A DNA stretch of 62,756 bases, counting the filler, from Perkinsus olseni (lineage: Eukaryota), in NCBI GenBank assembly GCA_013115125.1. It is 7 parts of 7 records of this genome, joined end to end, with 100 filler letters (N's around TTAATTAATTAA, not from the genome) between each part and the next. Parts side by side here need not be neighbours in the genome. Positions count along the whole stretch, not along the records: positions 9,022 to 17,941 come from JABANN010000942.1; positions 18,042 to 26,948 come from JABANN010000943.1; positions 27,049 to 35,950 come from JABANN010000944.1; positions 36,051 to 44,942 come from JABANN010000945.1; positions 45,043 to 53,926 come from JABANN010000946.1; positions 54,027 to 62,756 come from JABANN010000949.1; 1 more part is not named here. One strand, written 5' to 3'. Position 1 is the stretch's first letter; the number at the start of each line of letters is the position of its first letter. The notes beneath the pieces are model-generated. The model saw nothing but the letters and a program-made list of their open reading frames with translations. It had not been told where the DNA came from and did not search any database. The position numbers and the translations under genes were made by a program. This document shows, in pieces, positions 11,500 to 62,440 of the stretch.

Positions 11500-12810
11500 A
11501 TGAACACGGCACCTCAACTGGAAAGGACATGGGCGCAGCAGATGGCTGCGTTGGAGAGGCTGGGTGAGGTCCCGGGTTCGATTCCAGGGACGGCAGTTTT
11601 TTTGCGTTTTAGTGAGAAAACCTGAAGGGAAGGCGGCGATGAAAGACGAGAGGGAGGTCGGAGAGGACGGGCAGGGCCGGCGGGAATCTTAGGTTGACTC
11701 TGGCAACTCACGGATTTCTCTGTTGCTAGGCACTTGTAGACGAGATCCTGTGGATTTACGTAGCCATCTCGCGTGACTTGCCGAGGGAATCCCGACGACT
11801 GCGGATTTGGTTTGAGAGGGAAGTGGCCGCCATCAATCGCGGTAGCGTGGGGTCAATACAGAAACTGCAGAAGTATCATACCTTCATTCATAGAAGATAC
11901 GAAATAGGTCAAGCCATATACACTCACCGTCACCAGGGAATATTCGTTTTTGTATACAGAACAAAAATGCTCAGAAAGAGATGAGTTGTAATATTTCCGA
12001 GTATGCCGATGATAGGTACACTCCCTTCCGTATGGTGATTGCGCACTCGGAAGAATCGTGTGAGAGAAGATACCTTTACTATTGACAGCGCGGCATAGTG
12101 ACTCTGCGGCTTCACCGCGATTACGCGTTTTCCGAGGAGTGCGGAGTAATCGGTAGAGAATCTATGATGGAAAGAAAAACAGTTTGATGAGTGTAAACCA
12201 TCTTCAGTCACCATCGGCGTGGAAGTGCTCCACACCGGTGCCTGTCGAATTTCTTTCCGTCAATTTTTGACCGATTTTATTTTCTGGGCGCATGGATGTA
12301 CGGTCGTGCAAACGGGGTGAAGTTGCACGTTCAGGTCAGCTGGCCCCGCCGGTTGCAATCCAAACTTATCTGAAGAAGAGCGTCCGAGAGGATGAGGACG
12401 TCTCGTGGAGGACAACGTTGGCTTTACTCAGGCATGGGGTGACACGAAGATGTCTTAGCGGCACGCCCGGGGTGTTCAGGAGGGCAAGTAGGGAGTCCTT
12501 ACTGGGTGTGCGGCATCGACTGTTGAGGAGGGTGGTGGATGTTTGTGATGAGGGGTCCGCGAGGACATCGGGAGTAGGGCAATACTCGTCTCGAGATGAT
12601 GATGGTTCTTGCCAGAAACCGGTTCACACGAGCAATGGCGGTGACAGCCTCCGATCGAACCCGAGTACGATCTTGAGAGGTCCTCCTTGTCGGTATTGGT
12701 CGACCCTTCAGAGCTTTCTAGTAGGGAGCACAGTAAAGGAAGAAGGAGTTCCTTGTCCTTCTGGACTCACCTCGGCCTTTGACCATGAACCATGGCATCA
12801 TGCTTCCTAA
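11500..12810 (+). CDS. Hypothetical multi-exon protein (bounds approximate)
   Basis: In-frame splicing gives MNTAPQLERTWAQQMAALERL|VRKPEGKAAMKDERE|ALVDEILWIYVAISRDLPRES. No family recognised. Confidence 0.35.
11564..11612 (+). other. 49-nt intron containing tRNA 3'-half/B-box element (sense to host)
   Basis: GTGAGGTCCCGGGTTCGATTCCAGGGACGGCAGTTTTTTTGCGTTTTAG. Removing it keeps an open frame. Confidence 0.65.
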
Positions 12811-12902
12811 GTTGCACTGATGTTGCGCTGCCTTATTCAATCCCTCAACCTCTGAGGATTTCTAGTCGTTCAGTTTTCGATAAGTTTTTCTTCCCATCAT
12901 TA

Positions 12903-61000: not shown

Positions 61001-62440
61001 ATCTTAGGTTGATCATGGTCGAAGAGAAAACGACGATCGCTAACGGCATGTATGACAGTAGAGTAGAGCAACACTTTTCGTATCTTAGGTTGACTACAGG
61101 TCAGATACAAAACAGCTCAGGTACTTACCGGTAGAGTTTGAATGTACCCTCCCCAATAACCGACACGATTGCCGCATCCGTCGGATGACAGGCAGCGTCA
61201 TGAACAATCGCCACCCCTGCGGTACCACTCAAGGCCTGCGGAAAATACCCTCGCCAGGGATCGAACCCACGACCTCTCGCTCACCGGCATAGACTTCGTC
61301 CCGACGGACGTTATGCTCTGTGAAGCCAATCTCCTGATGGACATCTTCCTCGTCGTGCCCGTGATCGGCGGTGCTATCTGCTAATAAAGTATCCAAGGTC
61401 GACCCTGGGAACTTTCAGAATCGCAACAAAAACAATTCGGCAACCGTAAAAATCCAAATTTTCCATTCAACCCCGTAAAAAAATTTCTTGCAATTTTTTC
61501 TACTATAATATTCTCAATATAATCAGCGATAACTTTCAAACTTACACGATAGTAAATTCACGGCGCTTGATATTTTATCCATCGATTTCGTTGAAGTGTC
61601 ACCGGTGATACGTAAATCGCCGTGAATTTTCGAAAAATTATTACTATTATCTTCCGCACATTCTCAACACCACGAACAGTCACCGAAAATCTTCAATTTC
61701 TGCGCTCCTCTACTTTTAAAATTTTCATGCAATAGGTAATCCCACCTTCGTCCACGCCAAGAGCCTCGAAGCACCAGCTGCCACTTTGTCCAACCTCCAG
61801 TGACCGAGCCAGCAGCTCATAGATGAACCCGCAGCTGGGGTAGTGGAGATGGTGATGAGAGACTTTCCGTCAGCAGGGAAGGAGATGGCGGTGACGCATC
61901 CTGAGGTTGGCCAGGGGGAGCGGGAAGGCGTTTGGGGATGCTTGGAAGGGGCCTGAATAACAACTGGTGTTCATTTTATGCTACTCGCACGACCACAATA
62001 GATAAATAAGAAATAGCTTCACCCGAGTGAGAAGACACTCCTCAATTTTATGCTACAACCACGACCACAACGAGATAGCGTCTACATCGCCATGTTGTCA
62101 TCTCGAGTTTCTTCATTCGTGAGCTCATCAAACCAAGACCAACTTTCCGACAACTCTTACCATAATTTCCGAAATCGCTCATCCCCACTCACAAGAAGCA
62201 GGCGAAGAATGGACGGTGGGTCCATTCTTCTTCCACCGGATGGGCGTGGAACCCGAAACGGCCGCTTCGCTAGGTCATGTGTGCAATTCTCAGAAAGAAA
62301 GATTTCCCAGGCTACCTCAGACTGTTCATGCGTCATCGGATGGACATTCAGTACTCGCCTTTTTCTGACGGTATCACCCTTACAGCGGAGGTCATAGACC
62401 GTGACCGTGGGGGCAGTGGGAGTACCGTCACTCGCCCTGA
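55060..62440 (-). CDS. CFAP57: Cilia- and flagella-associated protein 57 (WDR65), multi-exon WD40 + coiled-coil; both ends incomplete or uncertain
   Basis: Exons in CFAP57 order: PTVTVYDL..RKRRVLN, VTAISFPADGKSL, CHPTDAAIVSVIGEGTFKLYR, LLIGSEKGELFLYES, EYLSTPLHTGPITGLSVCVRRPLVATCGVDKN|VVVWNY, SVAIHPNGFGLIVAFADRIR|LMNLLMDDI, VKYSNGGHLLAV, AHCGGITRMVLSHRDEHLFTISEDGTL, EETLVTRAYL, IEYQLR|LRD. Confidence 0.9.
57585..57657 (+). tRNA. trnK: tRNA-Lys(TTT), antisense within CFAP57
   Basis: GCCTCGGTAGCTCAGTCGGTAGAGCGCGTGCTTTTTAAGCCCGTGGTCGTGGGTTCGAGCCCCGCCCGAGGTG followed by TTTT. One U:C mismatch in the anticodon stem. Confidence 0.88.
59097..59142 (-). other. 46-nt CFAP57 intron containing antisense tRNA 3'-half/B-box element
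   Basis: GTAGGGTGCCGGGATCGAACCTGGGACCTCTTGCCACCCTTCTCAG. Removal gives the conserved CGVDKN-VVVWNY. Confidence 0.85.
59344..61406 (+). repeat. Dispersed intronic motif family GTATCYWAGGTYGAY (8 copies)
   Basis: Copies at 59344, 59472, 59613, 60086, 60287, 60999, 61080 and 61389. The first three sit in degenerate ~130-140 bp tandem units. Confidence 0.85.
61236..61284 (-). other. 49-nt CFAP57 intron containing tRNA 3'-half/B-box element (sense)
   Basis: GTGAGCGAGAGGTCGTGGGTTCGATCCCTGGCGAGGGTATTTTCCGCAG. Removal joins SMP to ALSGTAG...CHPTD in frame. Confidence 0.82.

Follow-up and report, generated by a model that had tools for sequence, protein, structure and literature searches.

Where spliceosomal introns come from is a long-standing question, and a stretch of DNA from Perkinsus olseni, a parasite of clams, raises it in a specific form: can the 3′ end of a gene transcribed by RNA polymerase III (Pol III) become an intron of a protein-coding gene? 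The window, by which we mean the whole stretch analysed, comprises 62,756 nt in seven pieces of ~8.9 kb joined by spacers of the form N...TTAATTAATTAA...N, and whatever is said here of mechanism is inferred from these 62 kb only. Six sites in it, namely five complete predicted introns of very small size and one cut by a contig end, carry a short element that corresponds to the tail of a tRNA gene and includes an 11-nt B-box. In order of position they are as follows.

Intron 1: 11564-11612, plus strand, 49 nt; element sense; B-box 11575-11585, followed by 11 nt and T7.
Intron 2: 15127-15174, plus strand, 48 nt; in a gene with a GT7 galactosyltransferase domain (hereafter the GT7 gene); element antisense; B-box on the minus strand, 15147-15157.
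Intron 3: 16618-16657, plus strand, 40 nt, with its 3′ end corrected; GT7 gene; element sense; B-box 16639-16649.
Intron 4: 44908-44942, plus strand, first 35 nt, cut by the contig end; element antisense; B-box on the minus strand, 44918-44928.
Intron 5: 59097-59142, minus strand, 46 nt; CFAP57/WDR65; element antisense; B-box on the plus strand, 59122-59132.
Intron 6: 61236-61284, minus strand, 49 nt; CFAP57; element sense; B-box on the minus strand, 61257-61267, followed by 11 nt, T4 and CCGCAG.

The B-box is strongly over-represented in the window. On both strands the pattern GGTTCGANYCC has seven matches against 0.38 expected, and none of 100 shuffles attained seven. One match is the T-loop of a genuine tRNA-Lys gene at 57585-57657; the remaining six all lie inside GT..AG intervals, and the elements that contain them are spread over four genes and three of the seven joined pieces. 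Five of these boxes are spelled GGTTCGATCCC and the sixth GGTTCGATTCC, so that the box, which is itself nearly palindromic, is intact at 65 of 66 positions over the six copies. Motif and profile searches of the window found no full B-box outside the tRNA genes and the six sites. A profile made from the six elements gave them scores of 27-33 bits, and the next hits, all real tRNAs, reached at most 13 bits. Boxes with one or two mismatches numbered 20 in the window where 18.3 were expected, that is, there is no surplus of near matches. The finding is real and statistically solid, and the initial annotation had described it mostly correctly: its six sites on three contigs and in four genes, the division into three sense (introns 1, 3 and 6) and three antisense copies (introns 2, 4 and 5), and the claim that no equally good box lies beyond the introns and the true tRNA genes were all borne out.

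Read in tRNA orientation, the elements have a common layout of variable-loop GAGGTC (exact in four of six), three bases, the 11-nt B-box, exactly 11 bases, and a T-run. The 11-nt spacing measured from the end of the box holds in all six copies and replaces the value of about 8 nt given at first. It equals tRNA positions 63-73 and places the T-run where a Pol III terminator stands; the T-run itself is present in five copies, and intron 3 has the T-rich TCTTCTCC instead. Each element is the last 35-40 nt of a tRNA gene, consisting of variable loop, T-arm with B-box, 3′ acceptor strand, discriminator and T-run, and it is secure that the elements derive from the 3′ ends of tRNA genes, or else of Pol III genes that resemble them. 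The copies are not faithful to the tRNA fold. Three or four of the five T-stem pairs form in all six, five of five in none, and the outer pairs are near random (9 of 18 paired); the tRNA-Lys of the window has five of five. All six carry T at position 59, where the tRNAs of the window differ from them (C in tRNA-Val, A in tRNA-Cys, G in tRNA-Lys). The acceptor-strand parts are mutually unrelated with the exception of introns 4 and 5, which have 22 of 23 core nucleotides in common (95.7%) and the same T-stem mismatch (blastn E=0.013 against the 62-kb window).

The 5′ part of the tRNA is missing from all of them. ARAGORN and Rfam RF00005 (E up to 10) detected no tRNA body at the six sites, which indicates that the pieces are truly 3′-only and agrees with the lack of D-arm and anticodon noted earlier. 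Solitary A-boxes and 5′ halves did not exceed chance in the window (6 against 4.0 and 6 against 5.5 expected), leaving six solitary 3′ halves and no solitary 5′ half.

By gene models and homology, the five complete intervals are predicted to be ordinary U2-type GT-AG introns of 40-49 nt. All five are bounded by GT..AG; intron 4 opens with GTGAGT, and the contig stops at 44942, before its 3′ end is reached. Excision of 40-49 nt is found in four same-species proteins, all of them gene predictions: P0124 and P0128 for intron 1, P0122 for introns 2 and 3, and P0121 for introns 5 and 6. The protein-frame support that had been claimed for three introns is there, and the count was too low, public gene models backing five. 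Introns 2, 3 and 5 are also supported by homology across species. At intron 1, P0124 and P0128, which come from different isolates, join ...AALERL/VRKPEG... exactly across (the slash marks the junction). Read unspliced, intron 2 contains an in-frame stop, and the PF02709 match ends at the exon end in the raw frame (2-51 of 78); in P0122 the same domain runs ungapped across the junction (residues 331-390 = HMM 3-62). Intron 3 had been drawn as 16618-16686, and its true end is 16657, the sole GT..AG choice that gives ...FIQLDE/TSSPSSACPSGYDERSRK, a frame on which P0122 agrees and which is conserved in P0123 of P. chesapeaki. Solved CFAP57 structures in the PDB align without a gap across the junction of intron 5 (...CGVDKN/VVVWNY against SVDKTVRIWNY). 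For intron 6, P0121 is exact (...KSMP/ALSG...), a statement from the same-species model only, as the PDB alignments begin at residue 67-72. P0121 is annotated 'WD repeat domain 65 [Perkinsus olseni]' and has 883 aa; its 22 exon blocks on piece 7 are letter-for-letter identical, and mapping them yields 21 CFAP57 introns, introns 5 and 6 included. The GT7 gene, modelled from P0122 of P. olseni and P0123 of P. chesapeaki, spans 12903-17585, encodes the galactosyltransferase domain and likewise has 21 introns.

The strand of intron 4 was taken from splice-site quality alone, GTGAGT against a poor GTCTCA on the opposite strand. Codon-bias scoring at introns 4 and 1 did not settle the strand, and Pfam searches of the frames around introns 1, 3 and 4 gave nothing significant. 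A sequencing run guessed to be RNA (X7) was compared with piece 2 only, which holds introns 1-3. Among its listed joints, three with GT..AG ends belong to further introns of the GT7 gene and none to introns 1-3. One X7 contig (15760-16089) shows no break at two modelled introns, namely 15865-15909, which is 45 nt long, in frame and free of stops, and the start of 16016-18; this read-through reflects either retained introns, DNA in the run or a wrong gene model.

The elements prefer short introns. This enrichment, which the initial annotation had proposed as a check, was computed on the two fully modelled genes only, CFAP57 and the GT7 gene, and there short introns are favoured. Together these genes have 42 introns. 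The 23 short ones measure 40-61 nt, add up to 1,085 nt and occupy 9.5% of the gene spans; the 19 long ones measure 103-847 nt and occupy 44%. The four B-box pieces in the two genes are all in short introns and none in long ones, which under random placement has p ~8e-5, or ~1e-3 given non-coding sequence.

Element and intron are also joined closely at their ends. In sense copies the T-run lies just 5′ of the 3′ splice site, as in ...GGGTATTTTCCGCAG/. Where the copy is antisense, the end of the element supplies, as its complement, the 5′ splice site: GTAAAATAAT... in intron 2, GTAGGGTGCC... in intron 5 and GTGAGTGGCC... in intron 4. The 5′ splice site of intron 2, GTAAAA, is the reverse complement of the element T-run plus AC. 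In introns 3-5 the tail of the element overlaps the exon by 3-9 nt, the flanking exons being otherwise from unrelated genes. At intron 3 the following exon takes in the T-rich tract and the 3 nt (16658-16660) that close the tRNA-like end. The discriminator and T-run of intron 4 (reverse complement AAAACT) lie in the exon upstream of its GTGAGT. At intron 5 the 5′ splice site GTAGGG begins at tRNA-like position 72, and the discriminator with T5 (reverse complement AAAAAT) forms the conserved K-N codons of the upstream exon; the codons GAT AAA AAT (D-K-N) align with D-K-T in CFAP57 of other organisms.

The same 62 kb also contain four complete tRNA genes, a truncated copy and a retrotransposon without long terminal repeats (non-LTR):

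13471-13544, minus strand: complete tRNA-Val(CAC), in GT7-gene intron 13463-13689, antisense to its host.
14492-14565, minus strand: second, identical copy of tRNA-Val(CAC), in GT7-gene intron 14465-14617, antisense to its host.
57585-57657, plus strand: complete tRNA-Lys(TTT), in CFAP57 intron 57505-57795, antisense to its host.
40463-40536, minus strand: full tRNA-Cys gene.
39249-39312, minus strand: 5′-truncated tRNA-Cys copy, positions ~10-73, lying 1.2 kb from the full gene and matching it at 97% identity.
22018-26417, minus strand: non-LTR retrotransposon on piece 3, with open frames of 643, 426 and 267 aa.

CFAP57 and the GT7 gene host three of the four complete tRNA genes in their introns, each of them opposite in orientation to the gene around it. 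Between the two tRNA-Val copies, identity covers 78 nt, namely the tRNA with 1-3 nt more, and similarity ends there. The truncated tRNA-Cys copy is complete at its 3′ end, lacks the first ~9 nt and is of intermediate length. The retrotransposon has reverse transcriptase, RNase H and a cysteine-rich N-terminal frame, is apparently intact, and is a possible source of reverse transcriptase in trans. Contigs from other parts of this organism's genome match the cores of the elements, and the similarity breaks off at the box edge (six at position 11585, three at 15162 and four at 16633), which suggests that further copies exist; past 11585 their rough consensus is again 11 nt, T5 and CAG, and more copies of the same build are probably present elsewhere in the genome.

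The explanation that fits these data best, and that we give about an even chance of being right, is that the elements are 3′-anchored, 5′-truncated copies of Pol III tRNA-like transcripts that were inserted into exons and are spliced out; the term 'micro-introner' would describe them. A tRNA-derived intron-generating element was one of the two possibilities put forward in the initial annotation, and the exact 3′-end geometry, the presence of 3′ parts only, the nearly filled introns and the overlap with exons favour it. As the initial step, a 3′-anchored, 5′-truncated copy of the primary transcript of a tRNA or tRNA-like gene would enter a break in a coding exon. For antisense copies, an exonic A-run would pair with the U-tail of the transcript and prime copying. 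The insert would be tolerated since it could be spliced: in sense copies the T-run would serve as polypyrimidine tract right before the AG, antisense copies would draw a GTR... 5′ splice site from the complement of their acceptor end or T-run, and ~45 nt would match the short-intron length that the genome prefers. An insert of this size with GTR... on one side and a pyrimidine run and AG on the other should be spliced, and so tolerated, where short introns measure 40-61 nt.

Several observations argue for such RNA-mediated insertion. The defined 3′ end at the terminator and the absent 5′ part suggest that the 3′ end of the source was fixed by Pol III termination, as in a primary transcript. 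The length series of full tRNA, tRNA minus ~9 nt and ~40-nt pieces points to a transcript copied from its 3′ end and shortened at its 5′ end. The overlap of the tail with exon codons in intron 5, and likewise in introns 4 and 3, favours priming on an exonic A-run over a tRNA gene that sat inside an older intron. The element fills nearly the whole intron, and the shortened tRNA-Cys, the tRNA-Val pair alike only over the tRNA, and the apparently intact non-LTR element are consistent with 3′-anchored copying in this genome.

Other results weigh against this proposal. The five intron calls come from public gene predictions and homology, not from RNA reads. No target-site duplication was found, in-register junction repeats measuring 1-3 nt at the five complete B-box introns against 0-6 nt at 38 others. 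None of the six copies is in a long intron or in intergenic DNA, where insertion should be harmless. There are no full-length close relatives, the best pair (introns 4 and 5) agreeing at 25 of 35 nt, and the window contains no full-length tRNA-like master with a decayed T-stem. The T-stems are decayed in all six copies, yet the B-box is almost perfect and no pool of mismatched boxes exists. Young copies of one master do not explain this difference between stem and box; decayed stems, intact boxes and the missing pool together indicate either many imperfect sources, with young copies, or selection on the box.

Selection on the box is the core of a rival account, close to the other possibility named in the initial annotation, which we regard as unlikely: the pieces may persist as intragenic sites for TFIIIC, comparable to 'extra TFIIIC' (ETC) loci, at which the B-box would bind the factor inside Pol II genes. 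Such sites would act in chromatin or chromosome organisation or in local Pol III transcription ending at the T-run, and the tiny introns would be the only place in a gene body where a B-box carries no coding cost. The box is nearly unchanged while the outer T-stem is near random and the acceptor part highly variable; slightly degraded boxes do not form a pool; and profile scores drop straight from the elements to the real tRNAs. Both orientations occur, the box is nearly palindromic, and the pieces are in tiny introns only. In a diverged lineage (run X8), the regions of introns 1 and 3 are gap-free, and the four substitutions in intron 1 all fall outside the 20-nt core, a result that is not significant (~0.2 by chance). 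The contrast between box and stem, however, stems partly from how the copies were found, as the search pattern picks intact boxes. GAGGTC and the fixed 11-nt spacing to the T-run, moreover, are features of tRNAs, and B-box recognition is not known to need either of them. No precedent is known to us for a systematic placement of TFIIIC sites in introns, and literature searches returned no report of one.

The same low probability attaches to a third history, in which whole tRNA genes resided in older, longer introns, died, and were shrunk by deletions to ~45 nt, the terminator-proximal part being retained because a splice signal had come to include it. This gains plausibility from the two modelled genes, whose introns house three of the window's four complete tRNA genes, each in antisense orientation, and from intron 13463-13689, in which the 5′ splice site is 8 nt from the tRNA-Val 3′ end and one deletion would produce the layout of intron 2; the tight 40-61 nt range of short introns fits as well. 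It is harder to reconcile with introns 3, 4 and 5, in which the tRNA-like end and T-run reach into the exon, at intron 5 in codons that other organisms conserve. A similar deletion endpoint near the anticodon stem would also have been needed six times, and no introns of 60-100 nt with two-thirds of a tRNA were seen in the sample of 42. Short-tract gene conversion from abundant tRNA genes, keeping the core uniform, or six unrelated chance remnants are very improbable. One report gives hundreds of copies of single tRNA species in Perkinsus genomes (PMC3706591), and the four complete genes and one truncated copy in 62 kb are in line with conversion. Against it, T at position 59 in all six copies is absent from the Val, Cys and Lys tRNAs of the window, and conversion leaves the restriction to tiny introns unexplained; chance is excluded by the shuffle test (7 against 0.38).

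Further candidates do not fit. Permuted or split tRNA genes do not agree with the lack of 5′ halves in the window and with a terminator that directly follows each 3′ half. A tRNA gene or whole pseudogene would show a cloverleaf to ARAGORN or Rfam and a five-of-five T-stem, and none was found. A tRNA-derived short interspersed element (SINE) does not match a length of ~40 nt with neither A-box nor duplication, and a DNA-transposon introner with target-site duplication does not match junctions at which no duplication occurs. Derivation from 3′ tails of the long interspersed element (LINE) in the window was discarded on the motif listing, which has no B-box in that region, no dedicated alignment having been run. 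The B-box as branch point was set aside since the distance from its A to the 3′ splice site ranges inconsistently from 12 to 31 nt among the three sense copies.

Among known systems, the introners are the closest. These known mass producers of introns, recognised by whole-intron similarity, are DNA transposons whose length runs from 50 to several hundred bases, and those of Aureococcus occur in both orientations. The DNA-transposon introners of Huff et al. 2016 are reported to have terminal inverted repeats and a target-site duplication that supplies one splice site. The Perkinsus pieces resemble introners in forming intron families in unrelated genes of one genome, with a common core and an element that is nearly the whole intron; in supplying or completing splice signals; and, as in Aureococcus, in occurring in both orientations. 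They differ in being far shorter (40-49 nt, with a common core of ~20 nt), in lacking a target-site duplication, and in their content of tRNA 3′ end and Pol III terminator, which suggests an RNA-mediated origin rather than a DNA transposon. The literature describes introners as intron-generating transposable elements of Micromonas, Aureococcus, dinoflagellates and fungi (PMC11282704, PMC12768974, PMC13685798), and one of these sources defines them operationally by at least two introns of one genome that are similar at blastn E<1e-5 (PMC12768974). The best pair here, introns 4 and 5, reaches E=0.013 over 23 nt in the 62-kb window, and failure to group at E<1e-5 would explain why screens missed these introns. 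The companion feature of introners, similarity that does not extend into flanking exons, is found in the Perkinsus set. In the literature as sampled, searches returned no tRNA-derived spliceosomal introns and no introners in Perkinsus, the supplementary tables of introner surveys lying outside the search.

Comparison with B-box-only loci, with retrocopies and with repair products gives a mixed picture. The ETC/COC loci of budding and fission yeast and of mammals carry only a B-box and are mostly intergenic. Of the features of ETC loci, the comparison covered the consensus B-box without A-box or tRNA body, which is present at the Perkinsus sites; these differ in all being in tiny spliceosomal introns and in keeping variable loop, acceptor strand and terminator at tRNA spacing. 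Non-LTR machinery makes 5′-truncated copies of LINEs and SINEs and retropseudogenes of small RNAs. With such copies the Perkinsus pieces share a complete 3′ end and a variable or missing 5′ end, the length series from full tRNA through tRNA-Cys minus 9 nt to pieces of ~35-40 nt, and microhomology at the junctions between exonic A-run and U-tail. They differ in having neither poly(A) tail nor target-site duplication, and in that the six short copies are predicted spliced introns in coding sequence, not neutral insertions. Double-strand-break filler is normally of varied origin. Perkinsus pieces resemble introns gained from such filler in being short and new, with junction microhomology and no transposase signature, and differ from them in that all six derive from one and the same portion of tRNA genes. 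Daphnia and others are cases in which filler DNA is described as giving rise to introns where double-strand breaks were repaired (PMC13685798). For Perkinsus marinus, one report lists 349 copies of tRNA-Leu-CTT and 116 of tRNA-Gly-GGA, and describes Dada, tRNA-targeting DNA transposons of 4.7-11 kb that insert at the A-box TAGCTC (PMC3706591). That system has in common with ours the genus and extremely numerous tRNA genes, whereas the present pieces begin near the anticodon stem, have no A-box and do not lie beside Dada sequence.

With almost their whole length of ~45 nt taken up by the final third of a tRNA gene, several of these introns suggest that tRNA transcripts, when copied astray, are able to give rise to new introns. 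A minimal intron is here, over its entire body, a recognisable piece of a Pol III gene, and copies in either orientation are predicted to be spliced. Should the same apply across the genome, intron gain would have a further, RNA-mediated and tRNA-derived route, terminator T-runs would prove able to seed both splice sites, and the high intron density of perkinsids would be explained in part. The system also offers a natural test of whether TFIIIC maintains B-box-only sequences inside genes. As a tentative extension, which we consider doubtful, Perkinsus might possess thousands of ~45-nt introns born from Pol III transcripts, as 3′-anchored copies both of tRNA tails and of other short cores such as the two further families in the window, in either orientation, with a shortness and divergence that put them out of reach of present introner screens, and with the B-boxes selected as TFIIIC sites.

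Other short introns in the window are also built on repeated cores. A 19-20 nt core, GACCGCGCGCCACGAAATT, fills two tiny CFAP57 introns on the minus strand, 60626-60669 (44 nt) and 56768-56810 (43 nt), once in sense and once in antisense, with a third copy at 3895, within 3880-3925 on the plus strand, before ...TTGCAG. The core TCGATYA-N4-GGCGCGCGCT (AAATCGATCA-N4-GGCGCGCGCT) fills GT7-gene introns 15414-15463 and 16268-16313, both on the plus strand, again with one sense copy, followed by T5, and one antisense copy. Two more copies lie near 4151 (4130-4165) and 4295 (4275-4310), the latter in a 316-aa open frame, and cores of this type also match genome contigs from elsewhere. They may represent a second, more decayed tRNA-tail family resembling the 3′ end of tRNA-Cys. 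A AACCTAAGAT repeat is a further candidate family besides these two tiny-intron cores. Counted over the two modelled genes, 8 of 23 short introns have a core repeated elsewhere, a proportion that speaks for some general process by which short repeated units become tiny introns, rather than for the B-box alone having a special role.

The CFAP57 intron 58152-58200, on the minus strand, is 49 nt long, starts with GTGAGG and holds GGTTCGAAT; it has the length and start of intron 1 and may be a decayed copy of it, although the profile search did not report it. The motif RTCAACCTAAGATAC is another intron-resident repeat family, with eight copies (59343-59631, 60085-60100, 60999-61095, 11686-11697 and 50755-50767). 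Six of them are sense copies in long CFAP57 introns, including tandem units of ~130 nt at 59355-59624, and one is antisense in the intron after intron 1 (~11656-11729). Variants, GGTCGACCTTGGATACTT, occur near the 3′ ends of two further CFAP57 introns.

The core pattern of introns 4 and 5 also led to two AT-rich metagenome contigs, L001 (1540-1640) and L002 (215-300), which carry an AT-rich, tRNA-derived, SINE-like element. Its T-arm core matches that of introns 4 and 5 exactly, down to which stem positions are unpaired, and ARAGORN finds no tRNA in it; the element is probably an animal SINE unrelated to Perkinsus. A metagenome scan with CFAP57 found no relatives.

Elsewhere in the window, minisatellites lie at 10353-10700, 11028-11250, 17833-17880 and 62684-62730; they comprise an 11-nt unit flanking an assembly gap on both sides, a 20-nt unit, and runs of the trinucleotides GTA and TAA. 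Piece 6 (45043-53926) contains at least two, probably three, acyl-CoA synthetase paralogues with common stretches of 69 nt and 12 nt. A long acyl-CoA synthetase frame is 83% identical to proteins named P. marinus and P. chesapeaki, and an ESM Atlas search with such a frame returned only clusters with bacterial labels. Piece 4 (27049-35950) contains two amino-acid transporter paralogues.

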